The position numbers and the translations under genes are program-made. The notes beneath the pieces were generated by a model that was not told the DNA's origin, made no database searches, and saw only the letters and a list, made by a program, of their open reading frames with translations. From Escherichia phage vB_EcoM_ECOO78, in sequence record KY705409: a stretch of 41,289 nucleotides of DNA, one strand, 5' to 3'. Of the stretch, positions 1 through 41,289 are shown piece by piece (the stretch's first letter is position 1; each line of letters opens with the position of its first letter).

Positions 1-13
1 GGACCAATGCCCC
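1..13. repeat. Terminal direct repeat GGACCAATGCCCC (left copy); cos / terminal-redundancy candidate
   Basis: First 13 nt identical to last 13 nt of window (41277-41289). Confidence 0.6.
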
Positions 14-101
14 CGCAGGCTGTACCCCCTCCGGAAGTACCTTCGATTTTTGAAAAATCGAGATTGTCAAGCATTTTTTTTCGCAATTTGTGAAAATATT
101 T

Positions 102-332
102 TCATTGTTGTGATGTCGCTCTCACTGCGTCGTAAGCCCTTTCACACGTCAGCCCTGCGGCTCTTGCCCTGTCAGCCTCTGCTGCATAGATGCCCGCTGC
201 TGTGTCAATTTCTCTGAACAACTCGGCAAGCAGGCTGCTGGTGCTGGCCCTTGTCTTGCTGCTGATGGCTGGTGATGGCGTCTGCGATACCGTCTTGCAG
301 GCGCTTAGACTCAGCAGCAGCAATGGCAGCAT
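102..332 (-). CDS. Rz1-like o-spanin (outer-membrane lipoprotein), overlapping Rz in another frame
   Basis: Internal start within Rz frame-shifted ORF; N-terminus MLPLLLLSLSAC = signal peptide with lipobox; extends past Rz stop (overlapped architecture). Confidence 0.55.
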   Translation of the reverse strand: MLPLLLLSLSACKTVSQTPSPAISSKTRASTSSLLAELFREIDTAAGIYAAEADRARAAGLTCERAYDAVRATSQQ

Positions 333-591
333 TACGCTGCGCTGTAGCAATGTCTTGCTGTGCTTGTTCCTGAATTGCATCAATAGCCCCCTGCCGCTCT
401 TGTTCAATGCGGCGCTGTTTGTCTGCGAATTGGATTGCGGCCTGTGCGTCTGCCAGGTCACGTGCCTGCCACTTGGCTGACCATTCCTTATGCTCAGTGG
501 TGCGGCCCTTCTGGTAGCTCCAGAAACACGCCAGGAAGATTGCAGCCGATATGGCCACAACCTTCACTATCATCATTTGGGTACTGTTCAT
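205..591 (-). CDS. Rz-like i-spanin
   Basis: Start MNSTQMMIVKVVAISAAIFLACFW (N-terminal TM) followed by Q/A/E-rich coiled-coil; located after endolysin. Confidence 0.6.
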   Translation of the reverse strand: MNSTQMMIVKVVAISAAIFLACFWSYQKGRTTEHKEWSAKWQARDLADAQAAIQFADKQRRIEQERQGAIDAIQEQAQQDIATAQRNAAIAAAESKRLQDGIADAITSHQQQDKGQHQQPACRVVQRN

Positions 592-749
592 GGTTGCACC
601 TTGTCGCGCTCTGCCAGCAACCGATCTGCCCGGATAAGCGCCCAGCACTTCCGCGCCAGCAATGACCGGCGCAGGAAACGCATTTGTGGGAACGCATACC
701 AGTCAGCAAGTGCCCTGACGGCGTGCCAGTTATCCAGTGGCTTAATCAT
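588..749 (-). CDS. Small hypothetical protein (53 aa) between endolysin and Rz
   Basis: ORF MIKPLDNWHAVRAL... overlapping endolysin stop; no recognisable domain. Confidence 0.2.
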   Translation of the reverse strand: MIKPLDNWHAVRALADWYAFPQMRFLRRSLLARKCWALIRADRLLAERDKVQP

Positions 750-1234
750 GCTGCCACCGTTCCACCGGCGTTTCGATACGCTGCCAGCAGGTTGGCAATC
801 TTCTGTTCGTGCTGCCCATAACCAGCACCAGGCAGGGAAGCCCAAATGTTTCGAACCTGGCGCACGGCCTGTTCAAACTGACCGGCCTGAATAAGCGGCA
901 AGGCGCGTCGTTCACGGATTTGCTGAATTGCAATCAAATCCTGTGACAGCGGGCTGAAATCTTTCAGGCCTAATTGCTTTTTGTAGGCGTCATAATAGCG
1001 GCTCAAAAGCTGATAACGGCCAGCAGCCGTGGATTTGATGCCCAACTTAGGCAGTGCAACCAGCTTGCGCGGATGGTCTGCAAAACCGGTGAACAGGCCG
1101 CCACCAACCAGCACGTCATAACCATTGTGATTGGTTCGCTGTCTGCCGTTGTCGGTGCCTTCGCTGTAGGCGATCATATCCAGGAAAGCGCAAACGTTTT
1201 TGCCACCTGCCTGTTGTGGAGTAATAACAGCCAT
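746..1234 (-). CDS. Endolysin, phage lambda R-like lytic transglycosylase
   Basis: Translation contains FLDMIAYSEGTDNGRQ...GYDVLVGGGLF...KSTAAGRYQLL...NIWASLPGAGYGQ, closely matching lambda R from memory. Confidence 0.9.
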   Translation of the reverse strand: MAVITPQQAGGKNVCAFLDMIAYSEGTDNGRQRTNHNGYDVLVGGGLFTGFADHPRKLVALPKLGIKSTAAGRYQLLSRYYDAYKKQLGLKDFSPLSQDLIAIQQIRERRALPLIQAGQFEQAVRQVRNIWASLPGAGYGQHEQKIANLLAAYRNAGGTVAA

Positions 1235-1236
1235 TG

Positions 1237-1512
1237 TTAATACCTCTCATGTGCGGCTTTGAAATGCTTAAGCCATGATAAAAAAACGTGACGAGCGCCA
1301 ACCAGTGCAATGCTGACGTTCATGGTGACAAATGGCCGTTGTGAGTAATGGCCAGTGATGGTGTGAATGATGATTGCCAGTGCTGATATTGCCACCAGCG
1401 AAAAGAACAGTTTTCCAACAACGCCGTCTTTTACTCCGCTGTACACCACGCACCATGATGCCCAGATGAAGATGAAACAGACGGCGATAAAGTTAATGGC
1501 AAAAGTTGTCAT
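1237..1512 (-). CDS. Small membrane protein of lysis cassette (holin/antiholin-like)
   Basis: 91 aa, highly hydrophobic with 2-3 predicted TM segments; stop overlaps endolysin start. Confidence 0.5.
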   Translation of the reverse strand: MTTFAINFIAVCFIFIWASWCVVYSGVKDGVVGKLFFSLVAISALAIIIHTITGHYSQRPFVTMNVSIALVGARHVFLSWLKHFKAAHERY

Positions 1513-1832
1513 GCGTTACCACCGAATTTGCTTTTGATAGCCTCAATTAAGGTCGCAATGTCGGCGTTCTGAATCTTCCTGATAACAGCCACCACCATCG
1601 AACCGCCAAATGATCCCAGCAGGAAACCAATAGCCGAAGTGTATTGCTGCGGGATGCTGTAAAACCATGACGTCCAGCCAGTAAGAAAGTAAGAACATGC
1701 AAGCCCGCTACAAACAAACCACAGACGGCCTTTGATGCTCTTATCATCGTGAAAAGGAACAGCAATCAACGCACCCATTAAACCAGCGATTGCCCATCCA
1801 ATGTTATCCAGAAACTTCTCAAAAATATTCAT
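1509..1832 (-). CDS. Holin-like membrane protein
   Basis: 107 aa, multiple TM segments (GWAIAGLMGALIAV, FLLGSFGGSMVVAVI), charged C-terminus; first gene of lysis cassette. Confidence 0.6.
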   Translation of the reverse strand: MNIFEKFLDNIGWAIAGLMGALIAVPFHDDKSIKGRLWFVCSGLACSYFLTGWTSWFYSIPQQYTSAIGFLLGSFGGSMVVAVIRKIQNADIATLIEAIKSKFGGNA

Positions 1833-1837
1833 GCCAG

Positions 1838-2272
1838 TTATTGCCCCGTAGTCATTAGTAGTCGGTGCTGATGGTTGTCATTTGCAGGTGATGTGTCTTT
1901 GTGGGGTTTGTCAGTGCAGTGCCGCTTCACTGTGCGTTCTGAAACTTCCAGCAGTTCCGCAATGGCTTTTGCGTCCATTCCTTCGCCGTGCATCCGCTTG
2001 ATGCTGCGGTGAATGAAATGGCGGTAAATGTATTCACAATTAGCCGGGTGAAGCATTTCACCACCGAAGTGCTGCACCATCTTGCTGGCGTCACTCCATC
2101 CAAGAATTTTCACCAGGTGGTCATTAGGACGGATCCGCTTTGGCACATACAAAATGACTTTGTGGTACTGCTGCGATGGCACCCACAGCTTTGGTAGTTG
2201 TCCGATAAGATATAGCGCACGTTCACGGCCAATAACGTCAGCTATTTCCTGCACAGTGCGCGGTAATTCCAT
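1838..2272 (-). CDS. Mor-family (Mu Mor/C-like) transcriptional activator, candidate late-gene activator
   Basis: 144 aa; C-terminal HTH (AKAIAELLEVSERTVKRH) and overall Mor-like pattern; sits directly upstream of lysis/late genes. Confidence 0.45.
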   Translation of the reverse strand: MELPRTVQEIADVIGRERALYLIGQLPKLWVPSQQYHKVILYVPKRIRPNDHLVKILGWSDASKMVQHFGGEMLHPANCEYIYRHFIHRSIKRMHGEGMDAKAIAELLEVSERTVKRHCTDKPHKDTSPANDNHQHRLLMTTGQ

Positions 2273-2329
2273 GTAACCCCCAATAATTATAAATAAAAGT
2301 CAATATGGGGATTGTAGCCGAAAAGATGA

Positions 2330-2660
2330 ACGGTGACCAGAAAAGGGTGACAAGGTGGCAAAGAGTTGGTCACCCGCTTGTCACCCGTCAATCATCTTGA
2401 TTTATAAAGAGAAAGTGCGCGTTTTTGGCGTTCGGGTGACTAAGGTGACAACAATTTCCTATATTAATGTATTTCTACCCTCTGTGCGCACTATTGATAG
2501 GCTATTCCTATCGTCTGTATTTACCCCTATCTAAACTTTATAAATCCTTGTCACCCTTAGTCACCTTTAGTCATTTATATAGTCATATCAGTGGTTTAAG
2601 TGGTGACTAACTAGGTGACCAACTAGGTGACAAGGTGACCAACTTTTGTCACCCAATAAA
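2330..2660. repeat. Iteron-like array: about 12 copies of GGTGAC(A/C)A in both orientations flanking an AT-rich core (candidate origin or regulator-binding array)
   Basis: Read directly: acggtgaccag, agggtgacaagg, ttggtcaccc, ttgtcacccg, gggtgactaaggtgacaa, ttgtcaccctt, tagtcaccttt, ggtgactaactaggtgaccaactaggtgacaaggtgaccaa, ttgtcaccc. Confidence 0.6.
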
Positions 2661-4959: not shown

Positions 4960-4990
4960 AAAACAAAACCCGCCGAAGCGGGTTATTATT
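4958..4990. terminator. Bidirectional intrinsic terminator (UUCG/CGAA-loop hairpin)
   Basis: aaaaacaaaacccgccgaagcgggttattatt: 5-bp GC stem, 4-nt loop, A/T-rich tracts on both sides; immediately after primase-helicase stop. Confidence 0.6.
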
Positions 4991-7299
4991 CAAAACGGTG
5001 AATTGTCATCTGGTCGCCGGTAATCCGGCTGCAACACCTTCGGCGGCAGGTTGAAGAACCGCCCGTTTTTCGTCTTGCGCGGTTCCTGCCCGGTCAGCTT
5101 GCGCAGCACGTTACTGCAATGCGTGGCCTGTGACTTGTTCGGCTTATCAAATCCGATTTCCTGCAACACCTGGCTGGCGGTATGTTCGCGGTAGGCGCTG
5201 ATGCGTTCGCTGCCCCACTCAAAGCGCGCCAGTATCATTTCCTCTACCGGGTCAATGGATTCGTGTTCCTTGTTGACGCCTTCCAGCATGGCTTCTTCAT
5301 CACGATCCAGCCACCAGCGTTCGCCGTCACGGTACAGTTGCGCCACTTCTGCCCATAACTGTTGCGTGTCGATGTCGTGGGCGTAGTTCACGCCGGTCAC
5401 CGGAATGGTCCACCAGCGAACGTTCCCGGTGTCATCGGCCAGGAAGTGTTTGGGGTTCACTGACGCAAAAAACACCGTTCGGCGCTGGTACTTCGATTCA
5501 AGCCGGTCATAAGGGCGGCGCAGCATGTCCACGTCAGAACTGATGAAGGATTTCAGCCTGGCAATGTCAGCCTTGCGGAACGTTGCATCTAGTTCGCCCA
5601 GCTCAACCATCCAGTGGCCAATCGCGGTGGTCACGCTGTCTTTGTTGCTAGGGTCGATGGTCGCGCCATCTTTCACCAGGTCGCGCATGGTAGGCGGCAG
5701 CAGTGCTTTGAACCAGGACGTTTTCCCCAATGACTGGTCACCCTGTAACACCAGCACGCCTTTGGACCAGAACCCTGTTGGCTTCATGACGGCAGCCACG
5801 GCAGAAATCAGCCAGCGGCGCACCATCATCAGCACCAGGCCACGGTCAAAGCCTTGCGGCGTGGTCAGGGTGTCAACCAGGTCATAAATGCGGCTGACGC
5901 CATCCCAGGGCCGTGACGTGATGAATTCAGCAGCCGGGTTGTAACGATTGGCCACGCCAATCAGCTTGATGTAATCGCCCACGTCACCTTTTGGCATACC
6001 GTTGCGGGCACACAGGCTGGAAACTTCCGCCAGTGAACAGTTGGCCGCAGCGTCAACGCCGTAGTCACGCCCTGGAATGGTCACCACCACATCTTTGCTG
6101 ATTTCGTTATAACGCGCCGTGATGCCGTACTGGTCCAGCAGCCATTCCAGGTTTTCCCAGGTGCTTAATGGCTTTTGCTGGTGGCTCATGTGCGGGTACA
6201 TGAACGGGTTGACCGTGGCATCCAGCGGCAGAAAGTTGTCATTTGCCGGTTCAGGTATCGCGTCGTTAATCTGGCGCTTAACTTCTGCCAGCCCTTGCAT
6301 ATTGTGCAGGTCGTTAAAGTCGGTCGGCTTGTCGCTCAGTGCTGCGAACTTCGGAACCACCAGCAGGCCACCGCATGTGGTTGCGGCCTGGCGCGCGTAG
6401 TGAACGCCATCGTTCTGCTTGCCATCTTCGTGCCACTGGTCGTTATCGGCTGCCACAACAATTGTTGCGCGTCCGAACTGCTGGCGCATCAGCTTGGCCA
6501 CGGTCGGCACGTTACCGGCATCGAACGCCACTACAACGCAGTAGCCTGTTGCCTGGTGGATTGACGCGCCGGTTGAATAGCCTTCACAGATGACAATGAC
6601 CGGGTTTGCGCCAATCGGCTTGCCGCCGATGACGTGGAAGCATCCACGCTTCTGGCCGCCAGGCAAATAATCACGGTCACGCCCTAGCTGTGGGTTTTCG
6701 TTCGGGAAGATGGCCTGCAAACTGGTGATCTGCCCGTCAATGTTACGCACAGGAACCAGCAGCGCGCCATCAATGCTGCGCTTTTCTGTCCAGAACCGCC
6801 CAACACGCAGGCCAAACGCCTGCACCTTCTTGCGCTGCAAATAGGGGTGTTCATCGCCGTCCAGTTCGGTGGCTGATTCCCATATGTTGCGCGCCTGTTC
6901 GGCTGCCTGCGCCATACGTTCGGCACGGCGCTGCTGCTCTGCCTTTTCTTCGGCTTCGCGCTTGCGCTTGCGTGCTTCGATTTCTTCCGCTGACAGCGGG
7001 GTGCGTTCTGCGTCGTTCAGGGAAAAGCCGAACTGCTGCGCCTCACCAATCAGGGTGCCAATGCCAATGCCGCCGTGACGCTTCACTGATTTCCAGGTGT
7101 CGCGTGCGTCTTTGCTGTTGTACTTGTCAGACTGGCGTGACCAGTCATTCCAGACGGTGAAACCGCCGTCGCCTAATTCCGATTTGACCGCCATCGCCAT
7201 GCGCACCCATGTTTCACGGTCGCAACCGGCGTCGATGTAGGAAAGTGCTTCTGCAATTTCCTGTTCGGTCAAATCCTTATAGTTTTGTTGTGCACTCAT
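4990..7299 (-). CDS. Primase-helicase (P4 alpha-like: primase C-terminal-like region, TOPRIM, D5/SF3-type P-loop NTPase)
   Basis: TOPRIM-like VIVICEGYSTGASI...VAADND; Walker A LVLQGDQSLGKTSW; 769 aa. Confidence 0.8.
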   Translation of the reverse strand: MSAQQNYKDLTEQEIAEALSYIDAGCDRETWVRMAMAVKSELGDGGFTVWNDWSRQSDKYNSKDARDTWKSVKRHGGIGIGTLIGEAQQFGFSLNDAERTPLSAEEIEARKRKREAEEKAEQQRRAERMAQAAEQARNIWESATELDGDEHPYLQRKKVQAFGLRVGRFWTEKRSIDGALLVPVRNIDGQITSLQAIFPNENPQLGRDRDYLPGGQKRGCFHVIGGKPIGANPVIVICEGYSTGASIHQATGYCVVVAFDAGNVPTVAKLMRQQFGRATIVVAADNDQWHEDGKQNDGVHYARQAATTCGGLLVVPKFAALSDKPTDFNDLHNMQGLAEVKRQINDAIPEPANDNFLPLDATVNPFMYPHMSHQQKPLSTWENLEWLLDQYGITARYNEISKDVVVTIPGRDYGVDAAANCSLAEVSSLCARNGMPKGDVGDYIKLIGVANRYNPAAEFITSRPWDGVSRIYDLVDTLTTPQGFDRGLVLMMVRRWLISAVAAVMKPTGFWSKGVLVLQGDQSLGKTSWFKALLPPTMRDLVKDGATIDPSNKDSVTTAIGHWMVELGELDATFRKADIARLKSFISSDVDMLRRPYDRLESKYQRRTVFFASVNPKHFLADDTGNVRWWTIPVTGVNYAHDIDTQQLWAEVAQLYRDGERWWLDRDEEAMLEGVNKEHESIDPVEEMILARFEWGSERISAYREHTASQVLQEIGFDKPNKSQATHCSNVLRKLTGQEPRKTKNGRFFNLPPKVLQPDYRRPDDNSPF

Positions 7300-7311
7300 A
7301 GAACCCCGATT

Positions 7312-7542
7312 TTATGGCCTGTTAGCGCGCCATATGGCCAGTGCGCGTTGTTCTAGTTCTTCGCGGGCTGTTGCGCCGCGCCGTTTTTCTATCGCTGCCA
7401 GCAGGGTGCGCCGTGCTTCAATGGTTGGCTGTTTCAGGACGTATTTGGCTTCGCATTCCAGCAACCATTCCCGGCTATCGCTCAACACATCGCGCCCATC
7501 GTGCAGCGTCACTGTGGTGGGCTGCCAGGTACAGGCGTTCAT
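7312..7542 (-). CDS. Hypothetical protein
   Basis: 76 aa ORF in operon context, overlapping neighbour. Confidence 0.4.
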   Translation of the reverse strand: MNACTWQPTTVTLHDGRDVLSDSREWLLECEAKYVLKQPTIEARRTLLAAIEKRRGATAREELEQRALAIWRANRP

Positions 7543-7727
7543 TTTGCTGCCTGCGCGTTCAGTTTCAGTTCAAGCAATTCAAGCTGGTGGGTCGGAATGA
7601 CTTTCCCGCCCTTACACCGCCAGATAAGCACCGTTTGTTCAGTGCGCCCAAGTAAACGGCCAACGTCGCGGCAGGTTAAGCCATGTTCAGCCATAATGTT
7701 GTGAAGTCGTTCGGTCCTTTCGTCCAT
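7539..7727 (-). CDS. Small HTH DNA-binding protein (Cro/XRE-like regulator candidate)
   Basis: Start MDERTERL with GAGG RBS 6-9 nt upstream; HTH-like LTCRDVGRLLGRTEQTVLIWR. Confidence 0.45.
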   Translation of the reverse strand: MDERTERLHNIMAEHGLTCRDVGRLLGRTEQTVLIWRCKGGKVIPTHQLELLELKLNAQAAK

Positions 7728-7807
7728 AGTAATAGCCTCGTAATAACAATGCGCCCATAGTACAGGGCGCATTTCCGAAAGTAAATATCTTTTGAAATAA
7801 TCTTACT

Positions 7808-8032
7808 TCACCGCGAAGCGCGCGGCATCACGAAACGGAAACCGGCCTGGTGCTTCATGGCCATTGCGCCTGCCAGGCGTATCAGTTCAGCGAACGGGTC
7901 TTTGCCGATGGCTGACGTGGTGCGGTACTGTTGCGCCGCGTAGTCAGCCGCGTGCTGTGCTGTGCCAGGTGATGCGCCTTGCTTCACCAGTTCGGCCATG
8001 ACTTGTTTTTTGATGAAGTCTACCGGGTTCAT
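7808..8032 (-). CDS. Hypothetical protein
   Basis: 74 aa ORF, same-strand operon context. Confidence 0.4.
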   Translation of the reverse strand: MNPVDFIKKQVMAELVKQGASPGTAQHAADYAAQQYRTTSAIGKDPFAELIRLAGAMAMKHQAGFRFVMPRASR

Positions 8033-8035
8033 GGT

Positions 8036-8335
8036 TCACGCCCCGCGCTGTTTGAGAAAAACCCAACTCAGCCAGTGTTCATATTGGCCCATCCAGTGCC
8101 GCAGACGAAAGCGCCTGTTGTTTATGGCGGCCATGCCTTCACCGTCATTTTTGTGCTTATGAACACGGTGCAAAACGCGGTCATACTTTTCATCGGATGA
8201 ATCACTATGGCCACGCAGCATTACTGCGGTTTCTTCTTCATTGATGAAGATAGTGAATTTACTGAATCCAAGCTGCTGGCCAGCCTCGACAACAATTTTT
8301 AGCCACTCATGCTTTGGCAGTGGTTTACCTGTCAT
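8036..8335 (-). CDS. Hypothetical protein
   Basis: 99 aa ORF, same-strand operon context. Confidence 0.4.
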   Translation of the reverse strand: MTGKPLPKHEWLKIVVEAGQQLGFSKFTIFINEEETAVMLRGHSDSSDEKYDRVLHRVHKHKNDGEGMAAINNRRFRLRHWMGQYEHWLSWVFLKQRGA

Positions 8336-8568
8336 TTTGCGGCCCTCCGGTTGCGCTGGTGACGTGCTTCACGGCGCATGGCTGCAATGCCGGTGAATCG
8401 TGATTTTCGCGGCCCTGGCTTCGGATAGTCCAGCACCACTTGCATTGACCGCACCTTTGGACGCCAGCCAGCGCGCACCAGCGCCATTTGAAAACCCAGG
8501 CTGATTTCCCTGGCTGATAACTTCCAGGCGTCAACCAACCGCTGCATTGCTACTTTGAGAATATTCAT
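8332..8568 (-). CDS. Hypothetical protein
   Basis: 78 aa ORF; ATGA overlap with upstream small ORF. Confidence 0.4.
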   Translation of the reverse strand: MNILKVAMQRLVDAWKLSAREISLGFQMALVRAGWRPKVRSMQVVLDYPKPGPRKSRFTGIAAMRREARHQRNRRAAK

Positions 8569-8729
8569 TCAACACCCCACGTTCTTTTCAGGTTTTCCAC
8601 TTCAAGCGCCGTCAACATGCCGTAACGGTTCAGATTCCACATTGCCGTTTTGGCCGCCAGGAACGTGATGTGGTTCCTGGTCGCCAGTGCTTCTGAAAAC
8701 AGTCTGCGAATGCTTTCTATTGTCATCAT
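8565..8729 (-). CDS. Small hypothetical protein (54 aa, MMTIESIRRLFSEALATRNH...), below ORF-track size cutoff
   Basis: Read manually; stop overlaps downstream start (ATGA); GGAG upstream; conflicts in part with alternative-frame ORF 8602-8808, which is ATGA-coupled to the VRR-NUC stop. Confidence 0.3.
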   Translation of the reverse strand: MMTIESIRRLFSEALATRNHITFLAAKTAMWNLNRYGMLTALEVENLKRTWGVE

Positions 8730-8804
8730 GGTTTATCCACTCCATCATTGATTGCCCGGTTTGTTCGCTGTAGCGCAGCGCTTCTGCTGCTACGTGTTTT
8801 ATGC

Positions 8805-9215
8805 TCATTTTCCGAACACCAGTTTTTCAGCGTCATCCACTGACCGCACAACACCGGCGCGGCCCCCGTTGTCGTTCACCGCGTTGATGAAGTTTCGCTG
8901 CAACGGTGACACGCGGGCACCGTCTTTGACTTCCAGGCCGGTGAAGATGGCCACTTTCTGCCCCACCATGTCAGGCGTGATTTCCACGCTTACCAGGCCG
9001 AACAGATCGGAAAACCCTGGCGGCAGCCCGGTGTCAAACGGCCTGGCGTTTTTCAGCAGCACGTCACGCGGCCCCATCACAACCGGCATCTGGCGCGGCA
9101 CCTTCACAATGTCATTACTGGTGTACGCCTTGCCCACGTTGGCGCGAAACAGCAGGCAGCGGCCTGCCAGTGCGTTGCGGATTGCATTCTGCAACGCGTG
9201 TTCTTTGTTAGCCAT
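8805..9215 (-). CDS. VRR-NUC domain nuclease (PD-(D/E)xK fold)
   Basis: Pattern LLFRANVGKAY...GLPPGFSDLFGLV...LEVKDGARVSPLQRNFINAVNDNGGRAGVVRSVDDA typical of phage VRR-NUC proteins. Confidence 0.7.
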   Translation of the reverse strand: MANKEHALQNAIRNALAGRCLLFRANVGKAYTSNDIVKVPRQMPVVMGPRDVLLKNARPFDTGLPPGFSDLFGLVSVEITPDMVGQKVAIFTGLEVKDGARVSPLQRNFINAVNDNGGRAGVVRSVDDAEKLVFGK

Positions 9216-9607
9216 TAGAAATTCGCCCCCGGATATTCACCAGAATTGCAGCGCATCCACACACGCAGGCCGATTTGTTCAGGGCGAAGGCTTGCCGATT
9301 GCGGCCAGAACACCTGGCGCGCCACCCAAATAATGCGGTTCTGGTTGTTGTTGGCCAGCAGGGTGACCACGCCCTGTTCGCCTGCGCCTTTGTCGCGCAG
9401 TTCAGCGATTTTGACGGCGATTTTTTGCAGTTCCAGGCAGTAGTAAGTCTGGTCAATGTCCTGCAATTCCGGCTGTGGTGCCGGTTCCTGTTCTTCCGTC
9501 ACCTGGCAGTTGTCCTTTGCAGGGTCCATGCCTGGCAGGCATTCGCGTGCCTGTGCAGTGACGCTGGTGGCCGCCAGGATGAAAGCGGCGATGATAAGTT
9601 TTTTCAT
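9215..9607 (-). CDS. Secreted/periplasmic protein with signal peptide and four Cys
   Basis: N-terminus MKKLIIAAFILAATSVTAQA (SPI-type signal, AQA cleavage); no lipobox. Confidence 0.55.
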   Translation of the reverse strand: MKKLIIAAFILAATSVTAQARECLPGMDPAKDNCQVTEEQEPAPQPELQDIDQTYYCLELQKIAVKIAELRDKGAGEQGVVTLLANNNQNRIIWVARQVFWPQSASLRPEQIGLRVWMRCNSGEYPGANF

Positions 9608-9651
9608 GGTTCCACCTGTGAGAAATGCCCGGCGAACCGGGCAGGGAATGT

Positions 9652-9942
9652 TTACTGCTGTTCGAACCAGTCAGCCAGTTCTCGCAACTGCGCAGCAATG
9701 GTTTTCTTGTCATCGTTAGACGAAAACACCAGGCCGTCACTGCAATGTTCACCGTCATTTTTCATGCTGTCAGGTCCAAATGCGATGATCACGCCGTGTT
9801 CTTGTTCGCTGTCAACGGTCAGCTTGAAATCACTGGTTGTTGCAATGAAAAACTTGCAGCCATCTGCGTCATGAATCGTGCCTTCAAAAGCGACTGGCAG
9901 TTCGTTAAAACCAAAACCATTGCGGATATTTACAGTAGTCAT
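9652..9942 (-). CDS. Hypothetical protein
   Basis: 96 aa ORF preceded by conserved AACGAGGTAACACCC cassette. Confidence 0.5.
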   Translation of the reverse strand: MTTVNIRNGFGFNELPVAFEGTIHDADGCKFFIATTSDFKLTVDSEQEHGVIIAFGPDSMKNDGEHCSDGLVFSSNDDKKTIAAQLRELADWFEQQ

Positions 9943-9980
9943 TTGGGTGTTACCTCGTTTTGTTATTGGGCACCATCTGT
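9943..9980 (-). promoter_or_regulatory. Conserved translation-initiation cassette: hairpin, CCAATAA, AACGAGGTAACACCC, ATG (copy 2)
   Basis: Minus strand ccggcacagatggtgccCCAATAAcaaaACGAGGTAACACCCaaATG; hairpin arms differ from copy 1 but stay complementary. Confidence 0.5.
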
Positions 9981-10000
9981 GCCGGTGAAATAATAATACC

Positions 10001-10042
10001 TTTACTTATGGAAATATCGCCAATGGTTTAAACCTATCAATA
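10001..10042 (-). promoter_or_regulatory. Conserved bipartite upstream element TATTGATAGGT-N16-ATTTCCATAAGTAAA (copy 2)
   Basis: Minus-strand sequence read directly; matches element upstream of methyltransferase. Confidence 0.5.
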
Positions 10043-10051
10043 CTTCACTAT

Positions 10052-11467: not shown

Positions 11468-11504
11468 AATTATCGTTCATTCGCCATCATTTAAAGTATT
11501 CGCA

Positions 11505-11534
11505 ATTGTATGTTACTACATGGCGACGTTGCAA
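11505..11534 (-). promoter_or_regulatory. Candidate sigma70-type leftward early promoter (-35 TTGCAA, 18-nt spacer, -10 TACAAT)
   Basis: Hexamers read on minus strand; inverted repeat TTACTAC/GTAGTAA overlaps spacer and -35. Confidence 0.4.
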
Positions 11535-11548
11535 CCAGTAGTAATGTT

Positions 11549-11560
11549 CATTGACGTCAA
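11549..11560. promoter_or_regulatory. Perfect 12-bp palindrome ATTGACGTCAAT (candidate operator)
   Basis: Self-complementary 12-mer in the divergent intergenic region. Confidence 0.4.
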
Positions 11561-11659
11561 TCAAGCCGCGATGTGCAAAAAACGCATAGCTGATGTACAG
11601 CTAAGGTTTGTTGATTAGCGAGCGTGACGCTGATCTAAACAATGTTAGTTACAAATAAG

Positions 11660-11689: not shown

Positions 11690-11740
11690 TCACCGCAGTT
11701 AATCCGAATTCATGTTAAATAATAATTGCGAGGTAACATA

Positions 11741-12883: not shown

Positions 12884-12910
12884 TTTTCATCACCTAAGAG
12901 ACTAAAAACA

Positions 12911-15751: not shown

Positions 15752-16228
15752 TGTCACGTGACGCTGTGATGCGAGATACAGATCACCTGCCTTATTGGAA
15801 TCACTTGTCGGGTAAGTTCCAGTCTGTGCGAATGTCGCACTGGGATGCGCTTTCACGTTGCGAGGTAACACCCTGGGGGTTGGAAGTGTTCGCAAAAGCG
15901 CATCACGGTGCGTTGTGGTGCTGTGCATCAGCGCTTCCTTCGTCGCCTTGGTGAGCTGCAACCACACCAACTAGCATTTGGATTTACCACAACGTAAAGA
16001 GCACTTTCATCGCTGCAACATGACGGTAAATAGGATTCACTGCATCACGTACAAAATGCTCTTAACTGTTGCGTGCCGTCCTTTCACGGCGGTCATCGTG
16101 TATCGCTCGACAGCGTGACTCTCTATAACTGACAATATAATCCTATATCACTCCAGTGCATTCTGCAACCATATTTACCATTTATTCATCTCCTCGATCA
16201 TCTTCTGTAGGTAGTCCACTCTGTAGGT

Positions 16229-32975: not shown

Positions 32976-33514
32976 TTTAGATCCGCCTCAAAGGTTTTAT
33001 AAAACTGTTCTTCAAATCCTTTAAATACATCATCGTTGAGAACCTTTTCTACTTCTTTGGCTATGTCATAGCCAACGCGCTCAATAGGGTTTCTCTTTTT
33101 TCCTTTTCGAATAAATGCGCCGCCACGTAATTTGCTGGATTTTATGCCTGGTTTCGGCCCCATAAACGCTTTATCAAAGTATTTCACAGCGCCTTCACCC
33201 TGCCCAGCCACTACGCCAATTTCATCCTGCGCGGCATAAGGTAATCGGCTAATGTCAATGGGGTTATAACCAATCCATACGCCGCCAGTGGCTTCATCTT
33301 TTTTGGTCTTAAACTTCATGTTCTTTAGGCGTCTGCGGAGAACATCTGCTTTCAGTTTTGTTTCTTTCCTGATTGCTCGTCCTGCTCGCACTCGCAGCCA
33401 ACCAGCCATTCTTCTGATTGTTCGCCTCATGGCCAGGCGCACTGCCTTTTCAGTAGCGTCTAACTCATGTGTGATTACGTCCAGTTGTGTCTGGTCGATG
33501 TCGAATTTAATCAT
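32951..33514 (-). CDS. Putative virion morphogenesis / tail completion protein
   Basis: 187 aa basic protein in structural operon. Confidence 0.45.
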   Translation of the reverse strand: MIKFDIDQTQLDVITHELDATEKAVRLAMRRTIRRMAGWLRVRAGRAIRKETKLKADVLRRRLKNMKFKTKKDEATGGVWIGYNPIDISRLPYAAQDEIGVVAGQGEGAVKYFDKAFMGPKPGIKSSKLRGGAFIRKGKKRNPIERVGYDIAKEVEKVLNDDVFKGFEEQFYKTFEADLKWRMQTQK

Positions 33515-34554: not shown

Positions 34555-36600
34555 TTACGCGTTGCGGCCTAGGCAGAAGGATTCAACGCGGCGCACCGCA
34601 AAATCCACGTCCTGGAATACCACGATGCGCAGGCCACCGGATTTGCTCAGGCTGTACGGGTCAACAGTCATATCCAGGCCACCCCACATACCAACCACCA
34701 GGTCAGCGAAGTTGCCAAAGAACACGTCACCATCCTGCACCTGGTTGGTAACTTCGGCGCGGTAACCGTTCAGGGTGTTGCCCGGCTCCCAAATCACGCC
34801 AGCGTCAGCAACGGAAGAACCACTGGCAAACTTCGGCGTGGTTTTCGCAGCGCCACGGCCACGCGCGTTAAGCACATATGCCATGTTGTTCACGTCAGCG
34901 TTGTCAGCCGCGATTTCGGTTTCCATCTGCACCAGTTCCGCATAAGTCGGATTGGCTGCTGCGAAGTCTACCGCGTTAATGCCGGTGTAGTTCGCCAGGC
35001 CAAGCGGCTGGTTGCTGGTGCCTGTGCCGTAGTAACCAGCGTAATCAATCGCCTGCGCGATAGCTGCCACCAGGTCACCACGCACGATGGCTTCCGCATC
35101 CGGGGTGGATTGCATCAGCAGGCGGCGTGTAATGTCGGTGTATGCCGCAACAGTTTTCGGTGACAAGCCAAGCTGGCCGATGGTCGGCGTGGTTTCGGTT
35201 GCGTCATCACCTTCACCAATCCAGTAGGCAGTAGCACCGCCAGTCTGTTTTGGGATTTCGACGTTGCCAACCAGGCCGCCCATAGTACGCGCCAGGCGCA
35301 TGATGGTGGTGCGCGGGCGCAGCAGGTCGATGAACGAACCGGCCATAAAGTCAGTGCCAACCAGGTTAGAACCGGTTTGAGCGCCTGCCGGGGTGTTCGG
35401 TGCGCCACCAGCGTTGAATGCACGCAGAACATCGTCAGGGATCAGGATGCCTTTTGCACTGCGGCCATACTGCTGTTGCGCTGCGTGGCTGCATTCGATT
35501 TCAAACGCTGCGGCACGCTGTGCGGCTGCATCGTTCGGGTTAGCCAGAGCGCGAACCACGTTGAAAATGCTGTAGCGGCGGATGTCTTTGTCAGACATAC
35601 CAATCACGCTGGACGGCATTTCTGACAGCGGCTTGCTGCCTGAACGGGTGCCATCAGCCGGTTGTGCCGGGTCTTTCGGCTTGTTCAGGTGGTCCAGCAA
35701 GGAACGCTGGAAATCTTCGGCGGTGGTGCCTTCGCCAATCGCTTTCAAAGCCAGGTCACGTGCGTTGTACTTCTCGCCCATCTCAGTGATGGAACGCACG
35801 CGCGCTTTTTCAGCTTCACGGCCACGCTGTTCAGCGTTGCGCGTATCATCGCCAGCACGTTCCAGCATTTCCAGAACCTGCGTGATGTTGCCTTTTTCGT
35901 CTACCATTGCGCGCACCAGGTTACCGGCTGCGTCGCGCAGAATTTTTTCCATTCTAATGCCCTCAGATGCAATATTTGTTGGTGCTGGAACCTCTACGGT
36001 GCCCGCAGTATCGGATTTGCCGACGCGTTGTTCTTCTTGGGGTTTGTCAAACGCACGCCCAATGCCAACGCTGGTGTCAGCGGGAACGCTCACAATTGAA
36101 ATTTCGAACGGTTCCCATTCAGTGATGCGGTAGACATCCTGCCACTCGTCACGCGTTTCCTGTAGCTTGGCCGCTAACACGCGGTAGCCAACGGAAACAT
36201 GCTTGCGAATGCCGTCAACGATGTCCTGGAAAATCTCGTCAGCGCGTGCACTTCGGCCAAAGCGCACCACAGCCCGCCCCCGGCGGTCAGCGTCAATGCT
36301 GACTGATTCAACAACGCCCACCTGGTCAGTCCAATCGTGGTCAACCAGCAGCGCCCCACCGTCACGCAGACGGTCCAGGCGCACGCTTTCCGGCGAATGG
36401 TCCAGAATTTCGATACCGTACCAGCGTTCAACCTCGATTTCGGATGAAAACGCCAGTTCTACGGTGCGTTTTTCGGTGTCAAACTTGCGCACTTCCATAG
36501 TGCGCACCAGCCCGCCTTTGTTGAAATCAGGCAGCGTTTTGCTGTCTGATTTGCGGGTAAATTCGGCCCCAATGATGCTATTCAGCAGGTTTTTCTGCAT
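34555..36600 (-). CDS. Fused prohead protease, scaffold-like linker and HK97-fold major capsid protein
   Basis: 681 aa: N-terminal HK97-type prohead protease-like region, charged coiled-coil linker, C-terminal capsid-like domain; possible internal in-frame start at 35952 (GAGGG RBS). Confidence 0.75.
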   Translation of the reverse strand: MQKNLLNSIIGAEFTRKSDSKTLPDFNKGGLVRTMEVRKFDTEKRTVELAFSSEIEVERWYGIEILDHSPESVRLDRLRDGGALLVDHDWTDQVGVVESVSIDADRRGRAVVRFGRSARADEIFQDIVDGIRKHVSVGYRVLAAKLQETRDEWQDVYRITEWEPFEISIVSVPADTSVGIGRAFDKPQEEQRVGKSDTAGTVEVPAPTNIASEGIRMEKILRDAAGNLVRAMVDEKGNITQVLEMLERAGDDTRNAEQRGREAEKARVRSITEMGEKYNARDLALKAIGEGTTAEDFQRSLLDHLNKPKDPAQPADGTRSGSKPLSEMPSSVIGMSDKDIRRYSIFNVVRALANPNDAAAQRAAAFEIECSHAAQQQYGRSAKGILIPDDVLRAFNAGGAPNTPAGAQTGSNLVGTDFMAGSFIDLLRPRTTIMRLARTMGGLVGNVEIPKQTGGATAYWIGEGDDATETTPTIGQLGLSPKTVAAYTDITRRLLMQSTPDAEAIVRGDLVAAIAQAIDYAGYYGTGTSNQPLGLANYTGINAVDFAAANPTYAELVQMETEIAADNADVNNMAYVLNARGRGAAKTTPKFASGSSVADAGVIWEPGNTLNGYRAEVTNQVQDGDVFFGNFADLVVGMWGGLDMTVDPYSLSKSGGLRIVVFQDVDFAVRRVESFCLGRNA
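36032..36048 (-). repeat. Copy 3 of exact 17-bp motif, inside protease-capsid gene (encodes DKPQEE)
   Basis: Plus strand TCTTCTTGGGGTTTGTC. Confidence 0.9.
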
Positions 36601-38134
36601 TTTGCTGCCCCATTAACAGTGTTTTGTCCATGCCCATGCTTTGCATGACCAGTTTTTCCGCCATTTCTCGGCTGATACCGTGCTGCGTGTACGCCTCAAT
36701 CATGCGTGCCACGTCGCTAGCGGTTTCCTTCCAAACGGTGTCAGGGTCGCTGCCACCTTCACGGATGATGCGGCCAGGCGATTGCAGCATGTTGTTTTTT
36801 GATTTTTCAGCCGCTGCCACGTCAGATGACGGGTCAATCCAGGCCCAACGGCGTGGCTGCCATTCAATATTGCTGTAACGGTCTATGCGTTCCGGTTTCA
36901 GGCTGCGGCCCTTCACCGTGATGCGTCCAGACAGCAGGGCGCGCGGCAGCCAGGCGTCAAAAACAGGCTGGTGCAGGTTTTCGATTAGCCATTCCTGTAA
37001 TTCCTTCCAGCTTTCGCGCTCGTCAAGCGTGCCCTGGCGGATAGAACTGAAATTGACGCCTTCCAGGTCGTTGGCCAGGTTGTTGTAAGCAACACCCATG
37101 CCCGAAGCCATGCCGCGCAGCATTTGTTTGGTGAACACGGCAAATTCGCCGTTGGGGTATTGCGGTGACCAGTCTTTGACGCGTGCGCCCTGTGGCAGCA
37201 CCTGGAATTCACCCGGTTCACTGTCAATAATCAGTTCGTCATCATCTTCAAATTCAGGGCCAGCGGAATTTTCATCCCATTCAATGAACCCCATTTTGTT
37301 GGCACCGGCGCGCGCGTTGACCAGTGCGGCTTCTTCCATGCCGCCCAGGTGGCGCATACGAAACAGGCTGGTGGCCATCCAGGGCAGGCCGCGTTTCTGG
37401 CCCACCATGTCATCAAAAAAGCCGTGCAGGATTTCTTCCGCAGGCACGCGCACGAAGTCACGCCCGGACCAGCGGTAGTTTTCATCCGATTCATCAACGG
37501 TGCTGAAATAGTACGCGATAGGCCGCCCGTAGCGGTTAAATTCGATGCCCTGGCGGATGAAATTTCCGTTTGGCATCCGATCTTCAACCATGTCCACCGG
37601 GCAGCGTTGCGGGTCCAGCAGTTGCAGCGAGAAGCCCCACGGCCCTGCGTCAGCCCCGAACACCAGGCGCACGAAGAATTCACCGTCTTTGGCCACGCTG
37701 TTGACGCAGGCGGCCTGGATGGCGCGCCATGACAACTTCCCGGTCACGTCACAGTTAGTCTTTTTGCCCCATGCGTCAAACGCCAGTTCAATGGCTTCAT
37801 TCGCCAGGGTGTCCAGTTTTCCGGTGTTATCCTGGCTTTTTGCCTGCAACAGAACGCCTTTTGGCCCCACAATGTTTGTGCGGCACAGACGCAGGAACTT
37901 TTTGGCATAATCATTGTTGGCGGCCTGTTCGCGGGAACGGGCCACCAGGATGCGTTGATTTTTGGTAATGACTTCATCAGCCGTCAGCGGCTGCGTGCCC
38001 CACGCGGTGCCAAAACGGTCAACGCTGGCCCCGGTAAACATACGGGACGCCAGGCGGTTAAGCGGTAAACGCCGCGTGCGCGGCTGTTGTGCCTGTTCGG
38101 CAGGCTTATTTCTGGTAAATGGCCACAGTTTCAT
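36578..38134 (-). CDS. Portal protein (lambda gpB family)
   Basis: 518 aa; lies between terminase and protease-capsid genes; family call from memory of lambda-type portals. Confidence 0.8.
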   Translation of the reverse strand: MKLWPFTRNKPAEQAQQPRTRRLPLNRLASRMFTGASVDRFGTAWGTQPLTADEVITKNQRILVARSREQAANNDYAKKFLRLCRTNIVGPKGVLLQAKSQDNTGKLDTLANEAIELAFDAWGKKTNCDVTGKLSWRAIQAACVNSVAKDGEFFVRLVFGADAGPWGFSLQLLDPQRCPVDMVEDRMPNGNFIRQGIEFNRYGRPIAYYFSTVDESDENYRWSGRDFVRVPAEEILHGFFDDMVGQKRGLPWMATSLFRMRHLGGMEEAALVNARAGANKMGFIEWDENSAGPEFEDDDELIIDSEPGEFQVLPQGARVKDWSPQYPNGEFAVFTKQMLRGMASGMGVAYNNLANDLEGVNFSSIRQGTLDERESWKELQEWLIENLHQPVFDAWLPRALLSGRITVKGRSLKPERIDRYSNIEWQPRRWAWIDPSSDVAAAEKSKNNMLQSPGRIIREGGSDPDTVWKETASDVARMIEAYTQHGISREMAEKLVMQSMGMDKTLLMGQQNAEKPAE

Positions 38135-38673: not shown

Positions 38674-38679
38674 TATTTA

Positions 38680-40728
38680 TCACCAGCGGCTAACCCATCC
38701 ACCGCCACGGCGTTTGGATGCCCTGGCGGAACGTTTAATGGGCTTAGTCTCTGTGACTTGCTGTTTTTCTTCTTCTTGGGGTTTGTCATTGGCCGGTTGC
38801 GGCACTTCCACCGGTTTCACGATGGGTTTGACGTTCGGCAGCCGCTTGCGCCGTTCCGGTGGCGCGTTGTCGTTCGCTACGCCAAACTTTTCAGCCAGGC
38901 GGCGGAATGACGGCTGCATGATTTTAAGCGCGGCCAGCGCATAGTTGCGGCAGTCCAGTGCTTCGTTGCGCGCCCGGTCGGGTTTCTTCCACTCGCGGAT
39001 TGGCTGGCCCTTCACGTAACGCATGGTCAGCTTTTCAGCGGTGATTTGCTTAAACCATTCTTCATCGCGGTCAGCAGGGAAGTGGCAGAAACCTGGCCCC
39101 GGTGCCGTCTTGTTTAAACGCCGTGCGGTAATCAGCTTGGCTTCATCGGTGCCCACCAGGAATAAATCCACTTTGCGGGCATCCTTCCCGGATTGCTTGC
39201 GCTGCGGCTTCTCCACGATAGGACGGCCCCAACCGCCCACGCCTTTGATGGCAAACAGGCGGCGGCCTGTGCGCCCTCTGGCGTAGTCATAGGCGGCCTG
39301 CGTGTAACCGCTGGTGCCCCCGGTATCGAGACAGGCGGCCATAATCGGCATGATGGCCCCGGTTTCGTGCTGGTAGGTTTCCGCCAGCAGGTCATCCAGG
39401 GCATCCCAGGGGTCAGGCGTCAGCGGGTCACCCCACAGAACGTGGTAACCCAATGACCAGGATTCTTCACCCACGCCCCAGGCCACCACTTCGCATTCCA
39501 GGCGGTCAACCTGCATGTCTATGCCTGCGGTGATATACAGCCCACCAGCAGGCACCTGCGCTGCGTATTCCTCGCGGCGCGCCATCAGTGAATCCGGGTC
39601 AACCTTGTCGCCTTCTTCTTCCCAGGTGCGCGCCAGGCTGACGTTGGTGAAGGTTTGCAGGTCGTCAGTTTTCAGCTTGTCCAGGTAGTCACGCACGATG
39701 GCCGGAACTTTGCGGAATGTGCTGTATAGTTCGTTCAGGTGGTAGCTGGCGTGCCCTTCAAACGGCCTGGACGCCTTCCAGCCTGCGCCCTTTTCTTCGG
39801 CCTGGCGGATAGCCGCTATCCGTTCGCCGTCATTCCACTGCGCGCCGCACGATGGGCAGTACAGGTGCGCGGTTTCCGGCCTCTGTTCGTCGATGGCCGC
39901 CAGCGTTTCCGCGTCAGTTTCGCGCTGGCCATCCCATTTGACGTATTCCCATTCAAGCGTAACGTGATCGTCACAGTGCGGGCAGCAAACGAAGAAATGC
40001 CGCTGGTCGCCCATTTCATATGCTTTTTCGATGTAGGATTCCCCTTTAAGGGTAGGGGTGCTGATTTCCAGCAAAAACCGCTGGTCACCGAAGGTGGCAG
40101 AACGCTGCCACAGCAGGCCAACCGGGTGCCCTTCGCTGGTTCGTTCATATCCGTCTACCTCGTCACATACAATCAGCGGCGCTGAACGCCCGCGCATGGT
40201 CTTTGGCGAACCGGACCAGGCGAACATCAGGAACCCGCCAGGGTATGATTTCATTTTCTGGTTGTTCACCCCGTCGCGGCCACGCGGTTTGGCAATAGCG
40301 TTGTTTACCGGCGCGCATTCTTCCGCCAGCGGGTTGAATTTCGTTTCCAGCCAGGTGCGCAAGTCATCCTGGCTTGGCTGCATCATCATCTGGCTGCGCG
40401 GTTCAGCGGCTACGCTGTACGCCTGCACGCACAGTGCCAGCATGGTTTTGCCCACCTGCGCGCCCCACATCAGCGTTACGCGGTAGCAATCAGGGTCAAC
40501 CAGCATGTCCATTGGTTCGCGTTGGTATGGCGCGTTATCCAGGCGCAGCGGTCCTGGCACGGCGTTGCCAGACGGAATGCGGATGTTTGCCTGCGCCCAC
40601 TCTGACGGCTTCATGTCTGGCGGCGGCAACAATTGTTGTTGTGCGCGCCGGATGGCCTGGTCAATGCCTTCGATATTGGCAAACGGGTTATTCTTCGCTG
40701 TCACCGTCGCCCCCTTCGTCATAGCCAT
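38680..40728 (-). CDS. Terminase large subunit (lambda gpA family)
   Basis: 682 aa; Walker A-like GAQVGKT, Walker B LIVCDEVD; C-terminal basic tail. Confidence 0.85.
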   Translation of the reverse strand: MAMTKGATVTAKNNPFANIEGIDQAIRRAQQQLLPPPDMKPSEWAQANIRIPSGNAVPGPLRLDNAPYQREPMDMLVDPDCYRVTLMWGAQVGKTMLALCVQAYSVAAEPRSQMMMQPSQDDLRTWLETKFNPLAEECAPVNNAIAKPRGRDGVNNQKMKSYPGGFLMFAWSGSPKTMRGRSAPLIVCDEVDGYERTSEGHPVGLLWQRSATFGDQRFLLEISTPTLKGESYIEKAYEMGDQRHFFVCCPHCDDHVTLEWEYVKWDGQRETDAETLAAIDEQRPETAHLYCPSCGAQWNDGERIAAIRQAEEKGAGWKASRPFEGHASYHLNELYSTFRKVPAIVRDYLDKLKTDDLQTFTNVSLARTWEEEGDKVDPDSLMARREEYAAQVPAGGLYITAGIDMQVDRLECEVVAWGVGEESWSLGYHVLWGDPLTPDPWDALDDLLAETYQHETGAIMPIMAACLDTGGTSGYTQAAYDYARGRTGRRLFAIKGVGGWGRPIVEKPQRKQSGKDARKVDLFLVGTDEAKLITARRLNKTAPGPGFCHFPADRDEEWFKQITAEKLTMRYVKGQPIREWKKPDRARNEALDCRNYALAALKIMQPSFRRLAEKFGVANDNAPPERRKRLPNVKPIVKPVEVPQPANDKPQEEEKQQVTETKPIKRSARASKRRGGGWVSRW
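38771..38787 (-). repeat. Copy 4 of exact 17-bp motif, inside 3' end of terminase large-subunit gene (encodes DKPQEEE)
   Basis: Plus strand TCTTCTTGGGGTTTGTC. Confidence 0.9.
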
Positions 40729-41212
40729 CCAGCAGGGAAGCGGTCACCAGTGATTTCAGCACTTCGTCAATTTCGGCCATCATCACCGATTTGAACCGGC
40801 GTTCATCGGTTTCACCGATAAGCATTGAAACGGTGCGCTGTGGCAGGTTGCGCATACCGGCGCGCACTTCCGCGAAGGCGCGGGCAACGGCGCGTTCAAC
40901 CTGGTCCAATGGTGCCACTTCGCCTTTGGCTTTGGCCAGTTCCAGTTCTGCTTTTTCGGTTTCGGCTGCCAGCTTGCGGCGCTTCAATTCCGTTTCATCG
41001 GCCATCACGTCGCCGGTAGCCGCCTTCACGTCACGTTCACGCAACCAGGCCGCCACCTGCGCGGTGTCGTACTCCCATTCTTTACCGCGCCCGCCAAGTG
41101 TTACATAGGGCGCTCCGTCTTTTCGCCACTGGTCAACTGTTGGCGGTGCTACCCCGAAAACTTCCGCCAGGCCGCTGCGGTTTACTGTTCGGCCTTTTAT
41201 TGCTTTTGCCAA
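40688..41212 (-). CDS. Terminase small subunit (Nu1-like N-terminal HTH)
   Basis: N-terminal GLAEVFGVAPPTVDQWRKDGAP HTH; coiled-coil middle; acidic C-terminus; adjacent to genome end. Confidence 0.65.
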   Translation of the reverse strand: MAKAIKGRTVNRSGLAEVFGVAPPTVDQWRKDGAPYVTLGGRGKEWEYDTAQVAAWLRERDVKAATGDVMADETELKRRKLAAETEKAELELAKAKGEVAPLDQVERAVARAFAEVRAGMRNLPQRTVSMLIGETDERRFKSVMMAEIDEVLKSLVTASLLDGYDEGGDGDSEE

Positions 41213-41276
41213 TTAATGCCGCCTTATCTAATGCTAAAAACGATTTTGATTATCCACGCACAACGCGAATTATGCG

Positions 41277-41289
41277 GGACCAATGCCCC
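41277..41289. repeat. Terminal direct repeat GGACCAATGCCCC (right copy)
   Basis: Identical to nt 1-13. Confidence 0.6.

Follow-up and report, generated by a model that had tools for sequence, protein, structure and literature searches.

A probable lambda-type cos site at the ends of Jilinvirus phage vB_EcoM_ECOO78, shared with a putative satellite family of 9-kb islands and plasmids

Results

Genes and repeat at the genome ends

The stretch of DNA analysed here, hereafter named the window, is the whole 41,289-nucleotide record of Escherichia phage vB_EcoM_ECOO78 (KY705409), and the element in question is an identical 13-mer present at its two ends, together with the site that is formed when these ends are joined. 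This myophage belongs to the genus Jilinvirus (subfamily Iiscvirinae), and is about 93% identical to Salmonella phage PT1 and about 92% identical to Escherichia phage HeidiAbel/Bas97 (hereafter Bas97), and its further relatives are ep3, ECO1230-10, Alux-21, Arya and KA2-1. As noted in a preliminary description of the sequence, the terminase genes abut the right end of the window and the lysis cassette its left end, all on the minus strand. As in lambda, the small terminase subunit (TerS) is Nu1-like, the large subunit (TerL) is of the gpA type, and the portal belongs to the lambda family (Table 1). Unlike lambda, the phage has a myovirus virion with a contractile tail, and its capsid protein is fused to the protease. 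In the circular form, the lysis cassette and a candidate late activator (102..2272, minus strand) lie upstream of the cohesive-end site (cos) and of terS, on the same strand. When the ends are joined, activator, lysis genes, junction, terS, terL, head and tail genes follow each other on one strand, and these positions bear out the lambda-like order that had been proposed.

The 13-mer, GGACCAATGCCCC, matches exactly between the two ends, as first described, and is found nowhere else: with at most one mismatch allowed, and on both strands, only the two terminal copies are present in the window (shuffled sequences gave a mean of 0.11 matches). Two fixed ends of 13 bases would be identical by chance with a probability of about 4^-13, i.e. 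1.5e-8, therefore the repeat is real. Since it is a terminal duplication, the unique genome, which is the true genome length, amounts to 41,276 bp. In the circular or concatemeric form, as deduced from permuted relatives, the 13-mer is single-copy. When the right end was joined to the left with one 13-mer, the resulting 417 nt aligned over their whole length, at 91-93% identity, with Alux-21, ep3, ECO1230-10 and PT1, the records of which were opened elsewhere in the genome.

Very probably, the window is the complete chromosome, as packaged in the virion, of a virulent myophage of the Jilinvirus type, and the 13-mer is its cohesive-end sequence, written at both ends. This reading, already favoured at the outset, is now backed by the lambda-type machinery, by the single-copy junction, by a dyad centred on the site, by the recurrence of terminal 13-mers in phages KA2-1 and PPpW-3, and by a PhageTerm prediction in phage Mano.

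Anatomy of the cos site

In the circular form, the nick region reads TGCGGG-ACCAATGCC-CCCGCA, a dyad in which 8 of 10 pairs are symmetric around the central base of the 13-mer. Only 32 of the 41,276 genome positions score as high (top 0.08%). We aligned, without gaps, 15 cos cores, 7 of them from phages and 8 from the putative satellites presented below, with hosts ranging from Escherichia to Pseudomonas. In all 15 cores, GCG directly precedes and CGC directly follows the 13-mer, the spacing is always 13 nt, and no indel is found. Inside the 13-mer, the first G and the last CC are invariant and the interior is variable. Read on the window strand, the variants are GGACCAATGCCCC, GTGGCACTGCCCC, GAGTCAATGCCCC, GGTCATTGCAGCC and GGACCCATGCCCC, with GAGTCTATGCCCC in PPpW-3 and GCGGCCTTGCCCC in Mano.

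Conserved boxes are found on both flanks of the nick region, as in lambda. On the terS side, the CACGCACAACGCGAATTA box is a candidate proximal recognition element for TerS or terminase, which would be cosB-like, and the rest of the spacer that separates the nicking site from terS is a candidate distal cosB. On the lysis side, the GGCTGTACCCCCTCCGGAAGTACC box is a candidate cosQ-like termination element. The whole would form a cosN-like nicking site with candidate cosB-like and cosQ-like elements. Candidate elements of cos are the two dyad arms, GCG and CGC, and two boxes, CACGCA and GGAAGTACC. No repeated R-type (cosB) element was found in the cos region. An inverted repeat (CACGCAC...) flanking cos in ECO1230-10 was dropped as a candidate, as it is kept neither in the window nor in the satellites.

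Just past the cos core lies a perfect 19-nt palindrome, absent from the other phages (Table 1). Its left half, CCTTCGATTTTTGA, together with the preceding CCT, is identical to plasmid-type satellites, so that the cos flank of the window is closer to the satellites than to its own relatives. An A/T-rich near-palindrome, GTGAAAATATTTTCAT, is also present just downstream of the spanin stop (window 80-96), and is conserved among E. coli and Salmonella phages.

The resemblance to lambda cos extends to the location of the site, between the spanin (Rz) and small terminase genes and co-oriented with the late genes, and to the partial two-fold symmetry of the nick region. The differences lie in the putative overhang, of 13 nt here against 12-nt 5' ends of unrelated sequence in lambda, in the spacer to terS, of 64 nt in the window against some 190 nt in lambda, and in the integration host factor (IHF) consensus and R-type TerS repeats, which were not identified in the window phage. 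The cos site itself is an ordinary member of the lambda type.

Further evidence comes from bacterial genomes. A cos core of about 75 bp (window 41255-41289 followed by 14-58) was found in 66 of 5426 complete E. coli genomes, with 90-99% identity, in unannotated DNA and between unrelated flanks. Such conservation amid unrelated flanks points to selection on the site itself, and a block of this size kept independently is strong evidence for a packaging signal.

A cycle for these ends can be proposed by analogy with the lambda type. The replicating genome would be circular or concatemeric, with one 13-mer in the cos site between the spanin gene and terS. The Nu1-like TerS would place the gpA-type TerL on cos, and TerL would nick twice, 13 nt apart and symmetrically on the dyad TGCG|GGACCAATGCCCC|CGCA, cutting the top strand at 41276|41277 and the bottom strand at 13|14. 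Strand separation would leave 13-nt complementary single-stranded ends, and packaging would run from cos toward terS. After injection, the ends would anneal and be ligated, rebuilding the continuous late region of the minus strand. In ligation-based libraries, 5' overhangs are filled in and 3' overhangs are removed in end repair, a logic used by PhageTerm. The duplication in the record would correspond to 5' overhangs filled in at library preparation, both ends being read with the overhang. We infer from sequence the exact nick positions, the 13-nt length of the overhang, the roles of the flanking boxes, and the 5' polarity, the latter because of the terminal duplication in the record and of the terminase family.

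Table 1. Features of the window, and location of the elements that share its cos core
Feature	Position	Strand	Remarks
Left 13-mer copy, GGACCAATGCCCC	1..13	+	In virion DNA, the top strand would protrude here as a 5' single-stranded end; KA2-1 and PPpW-3 have homologous 13-mers at their termini
Right 13-mer copy, GGACCAATGCCCC	41277..41289	+	On the bottom strand, the complement GGGGCATTGGTCC would protrude as a 5' end
terS-side dyad arm, TGCG	41273..41276		GCG invariant in 15/15 cores; putative nick 41276/41277
Lysis-side dyad arm, CGCA	14..17		CGC invariant in 15/15 cores; putative bottom-strand nick 13/14
Conserved terS-side box, CACGCACAACGCGAATTA	41255..41272		CACGCA (41255-41260) invariant, at fixed distance, in all phages and satellites
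Rest of the 64-nt cosN-terS spacer	41213..41254		A/T-rich element TAATGCTAAAAACGATTTTG at 41229-41248, partly retained in satellites
Conserved lysis-side box, GGCTGTACCCCCTCCGGAAGTACC	18..41		GGAAG(T/G)ACC part retained out to Mano, PPpW-3 and a Pseudomonas satellite
Perfect 19-nt palindrome, TCGATTTTTGAAAAATCGA	43..61		TCGATTTTT-G-AAAAATCGA; just past the cos core
TerS, Nu1-like N-terminal DNA-binding domain	40688..41212	-	PF07471, E=2.3e-11, above curated cut-off
TerL, lambda gpA type, ATPase and endonuclease domains	38680..40728	-	PF05876, E=1.5e-74; PF20454, E=5.9e-98
Portal, lambda family	36578..38134	-	PF05136, E=2.3e-92
Prohead protease-major capsid protein fusion	34555..36600	-	PF04586 and PF05065
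Tape measure protein, 781 aa	20681..23026	-	59-60% identity, full length, to the tape measure of the cos-bearing ~9 kb elements
Spanin	102-560	-	Lysis cassette
Endolysin	746-1234	-	Lysis cassette
Two holins	1237-1512, 1509-1832	-	Lysis cassette
Helix-turn-helix late-activator candidate	1838-2272	-	Generic C-terminal helix-turn-helix below curated Pfam cut-offs
Primase/helicase (PriCT-2, Toprim, VapE-like)	4990..7299	-	C-terminal part 65% identical to the VapE replication protein of the island
Collapsed integrase locus	15913..16221		~300 nt, against 1.6 kb with integrase in Bas97
fis island	7205-16551 of the examined E. coli 0-4 stretch (NZ_CP076262)		cos core at 12001-12073 of the same stretch
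Plasmid-type elements	pM121-3 (NZ_CP083588), CP054330, NZ_CP104987, NZ_CP100673, CP077066

Ends of related phages

Klebsiella phage KA2-1 (PQ571296, about 80% identical to the window) has its own 13-mer, GGGGCAGTGCCAC, at 1-13 and at 43598-43610. The final 57 nt of its record (43612-43668) are an exact copy of the internal stretch 33110-33166, which indicates an assembly chimera, with a tail appended beyond the true right end. The linear record of Pseudomonas phage PPpW-3 (NC_023006) has GGGGCATAGACTC at its start and ...CCTGCG-GGGGCATAGACTC at its end, in the position homologous to that of the window. Read on the window strand, the 13-mers differ between PPpW-3 (GAGTCTATGCCCC), KA2-1 (GTGGCACTGCCCC) and Mano (GCGGCCTTGCCCC). 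Three records from different laboratories (the window, KA2-1 and PPpW-3) agree in the place and in the 13-nt length of their terminal duplication, and differ in its sequence.

The record of Achromobacter phage Mano (NC_054147) bears a feature "cohesive end predicted by PhageTerm" at 1-7 (CAAGGCC), and the termini of this phage are stated to be cos (PMC7849712). The annotated end is internal to the homologous 13-mer (TGCG-GGGG|CAAGGCC-GC-CGCG, against TGCG-GGGGCATTGGTCC-CGCA in the window), about 80 nt upstream of terS, which starts at 82 in Mano and at 78 in KA2-1 and in the reversed window. From the dyad and the relatives, the 13 nt predicted for Mano are GGGGCAAGGCCGC. The ends of PPpW-3, KA2-1 and Mano are all at the homologous position, with a 13-nt duplication in the first two and an annotated end of 7 nt in Mano.

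Public Jilinvirus records were opened at no fewer than four different places, and several relatives were deposited as circular or cut elsewhere. The linear record of Arya (NC_031048) breaks 4 nt outside the 13-mer, i.e. 4 nt from the predicted nick, and the sequence of ET-SD-TH enters a run of N 6 nt short of the 13-mer. Scans of viral contigs matched only Arya and two satellite contigs, none of which ended at the 13-mer. Among species-representative bacterial genomes, neither the exact nor the degenerate cos pattern gave any match, likely because this set holds one genome per species.

Alternative readings of the ends

Several observations weigh against the cohesive-end reading as proposed. 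First, the cohesive end annotated in Mano has 7 nt and not 13, and is one base off the centre of the local dyad, which makes a 13-nt overhang less certain across the group. Second, the genome of Arya was called circularly permuted, on polymerase chain reaction and digestion only (PMC5754474). The Arya contig had terminal redundancy, and the claim is probably a misreading of cos ends. Third, 4 nt are missing from Alux-21 at the border of the cos core, where the window has positions 12-15 (GGACCAATGCC----CAGGC); the junction may have been wrongly sequenced or assembled in this record, or its cos may truly differ. Finally, with at most one mismatch, the IHF consensus was not found in the cos region, unlike in lambda.

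The first of these points is the basis of the rival that survives best, although it is unlikely: the site would be cos, with an overhang that is not a 5' extension of 13 nt, being either shorter (the central 7 nt, as in Mano, where the PhageTerm feature lies within the homologous 13-mer) or 3', and the duplication would result from record finishing. A shorter overhang fits poorly with three independent records, from different laboratories and hosts, that have exactly 13 nt bounded by the invariant GCG and CGC. Besides, a 13-nt stagger is symmetric on the dyad, whereas the 7 nt of Mano are asymmetric. As for a 3' overhang, it would be trimmed in end repair and would yield no terminal duplication.

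Even less probable is headful packaging of a circularly permuted genome, the 13-mer being a chance match or an assembler overlap left where a circular assembly was opened. The claim made for Arya, a close relative, would fit, as would the relatives deposited as circular or opened elsewhere. However, the terminase is of the gpA/Nu1 type and not of a headful type, 13 is not a usual overlap length, and the records of three phages, each with a 13-mer of its own, are cut at identical base positions. In addition, PhageTerm calls cos in Mano, and the site sits on a conserved dyad.

We give hardly any credit to a short duplex direct terminal repeat of the T7 type, in line with the looser "terminal repeat" wording of the preliminary description. 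The record has the sequence at both ends, and duplex and single strand look alike in a sequence, but a gpA-type nuclease making staggered nicks gives cohesive ends directly, and the PhageTerm call in Mano is again cos. Known direct terminal repeats are usually at least about 100 bp long, and are made by other terminase types.

A last possibility, raised in the same description and just as improbable, was that the window is an excised or predicted prophage and the 13-mer the core of its attachment (att) site, present once in attL and once in attR. Prophages are flanked by short direct repeats, and some Jilinviruses keep an integrase beside a tRNA-Arg gene. In Bas97, however, this integrase is in the middle of the genome, about 17 kb from the homologous junction. 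The window has no homologue of the Bas97 integrase and cI repressor, no integrase among its large open reading frames (ORFs) and no tRNA gene. The integrase and cI-like repressor loci kept in Bas97 and PT1 are deleted, the former being reduced to some 300 nt and the latter missing between window 11383 and 11724. Because of these deletions, the phage is probably obligately virulent, as far as its gene content tells. According to the BASEL study, only a few members of the Jilinvirus group have kept an intact integrase and cI (PMC11990801). Moreover, the junction is continuous in the four virion-derived relatives. The window itself stops at the repeats; in the 5426 complete E. coli genomes, the 13-mer region was confined to the ~9 kb elements, and neither an empty attB nor a copy with phage flanks was seen. 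To the extent that sequence can decide, the att reading is excluded.

Islands and plasmids that carry the cos core

The E. coli matches to the cos core lie inside an island of about 9.35 kb. A 17-bp repeat, AATACGGCATGAACTAA, corresponding to the 3' end of fis, flanks it on either side. This fis island is present to 80% or more in 47 genomes, and nearly all the others have an empty site. Strains 0-4 and WCHEC035148 are examples of carriers. The order of its genes is integrase, AlpA (PF05930, E=3.5e-13), a small ORF, a VapE primase, a small ORF, the cos core, a protein of 294 amino acids (aa), four small ORFs and a tape measure of 757 aa. Integrase-less circular plasmids of about 9-10 kb from E. 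coli, Salmonella and Proteus have the same cargo (294-aa capsid-like protein, tape measure and cos), with varied primase genes, and were scored as non-mobilizable in PLSDB. Whole contigs with the same cargo and the cos core were also found in Enterobacter, Cronobacter, an unidentified sample and Pseudomonas fluorescens.

The only DNA common to Jilinvirus phages and to the ~9 kb elements is the ~75-bp cos core. When the 2.5 kb module specific to the island was compared with 50,697 phage records, only Jilinvirus phages matched, and only over this core. At the protein level, two island genes have a homologue in the window, and the others have none. The island VapE is related to the C-terminal part of the window primase, and the island tape measure to that of the window over its full length, with 78-88% identity in the central part (Table 1). 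Satellite tape measures (757-763 aa) fall into two types, with a mosaic build: the satellites have the N- and C-terminal parts in common, and it is the centre of one type that is window-like, at 78-88% identity. This mosaicism suggests exchange by recombination between helper and satellite.

Neither Pfam nor PHROG gave a match for the 294-aa protein, which belongs to a family of 102 members, from Enterobacterales and Pseudomonas, mostly on contigs of 8.9-9.6 kb. The predicted fold of the protein is of the HK97 capsid type (pLDDT 77, pTM 0.75), and every top structural match is a capsid or an encapsulin, among them the P4 procapsid and the SaPIbov5 procapsid containing Ccm. Some relatives are fused to a prohead protease, like the head protein of the helper. 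When this family was first compared with the head protein of the window by hhalign, the match was confined to the protease parts of three fusion proteins; with these three removed, a weak C-terminal match was left (E=0.0019, probability 14%). A profile search of solved structures with the family gave no match. As profile matches are weak, the capsid assignment rests on the predicted fold and not on sequence, and the model points to an HK97-fold capsid protein. If so, this protein would probably build capsids, or resize them, for a genome about 22% of the size of the helper's.

No terminase, portal, protease or lysis gene was found in the fis island or in the plasmids. Given the missing terminase, portal and lysis genes, these elements look like users of Jilinvirus packaging and tails. 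Neither were the Sid, Psu and Delta families detected in them, and no Rpp-, Ppi- or TerS-like gene was recognised. We consider it somewhat more probable than its contrary that the ~9-10 kb elements form an undescribed family of tailed-phage satellites, with the cos of the helper, an HK97-fold capsid protein and, more unusually, a tape measure of their own, and dependent on phages like that of the window for packaging and tails. The proposed family covers the integrase/AlpA form in fis and the small plasmids, in Escherichia, Salmonella, Proteus, Enterobacter, Cronobacter and Pseudomonas. A literature search found no description of ~9 kb cos-bearing elements, and according to a 2025 review only one plasmid satellite is known, that of an inovirus (PMC12282955).

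Two other explanations were discarded. The islands are not decayed Jilinvirus prophages: the same gene set is found across genera on autonomous replicons, and the cos core is the only DNA that is shared. Nor is plasmid pM121-3 an excised fis island, as it has a different replication gene, the other tape measure type and no integrase.

Late transcription across the junction

Between the spanin gene and terS, simple scans of the window ends and of the intact ECO1230-10 junction detected no terminator-like site on the late strand and no promoter-like site before terS. Late read-through is therefore not contradicted by these scans, which are only compatible with it. The late-activator candidate had been described as Mor-like. 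This label was not retained: Pfam gave no Mor-family match, even at E<=1, and only the generic helix-turn-helix was recognised. In relatives, the homologue of this protein carries the label "late transcriptional activator" via PHROGs. A single sigma-70-like promoter match was present in the left 2.4 kb, at window 2311-2339 on the minus strand, just upstream of this gene, and is not above chance.

Discussion

The relationship proposed here recalls that of P2 with its satellite P4, which also carries, in otherwise unrelated DNA, a stretch nearly identical to the cos of its helper, and which is also either integrated or a plasmid. The ends of P2 and P4 are 19 nt long, and their common stretch is of about 55 bp, against some 75 bp here, and P4 remodels the P2 capsid with Sid, which is not a capsid homologue. 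The ~9 kb elements differ by their capsid-fold protein and tape measure, and by the lack of detectable Sid, Psu and Delta.

The fis island also resembles the cos-type phage-inducible chromosomal islands (PICIs) EcCICFT073, SaPIbov5 and PmCI172, with int, alpA, pri-rep and cos in the PICI order. Like SaPIbov5 (Ccm) and PmCI172, it encodes a putative capsid-protein homologue, and the helper of PmCI172 is a myovirus as well. By gene content and insertion site, it fits a PICI, with int, AlpA, a VapE primase, the cos core, a 17-bp att repeat at fis and less than a full virion set. Its size, about 9.35 kb, is slightly below the usual 10-15 kb. Capsid-forming PICIs (cf-PICIs) are defined by a capsid-packaging module of their own, with capsid, portal, protease, TerS and connectors, of which the island has the capsid-fold protein only. 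It is distinguished from cos-type PICIs by its full-length tape measure homologue, by its integrase-less plasmid siblings with the same cargo, and by its presumed helper, a largely virulent Jilinvirus.

For the Jilinvirus group, described as poorly characterised (PMC11990801), these results assign a packaging strategy and question a published claim of circular permutation. The cos site gives the correct point at which to open genomes of this group for comparison, one public record having a chimeric tail and another a likely cos deletion. The more notable part of the finding is the probable satellite family exposed by the cos core, rather than cos itself. This core is a search handle that ties the phage of the window to ~9 kb islands and to plasmids typed as non-mobilizable, and it points to a testable, putative helper-satellite pair in E. 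coli, for which a culturable relative of the helper, Bas97, is available in a public collection.

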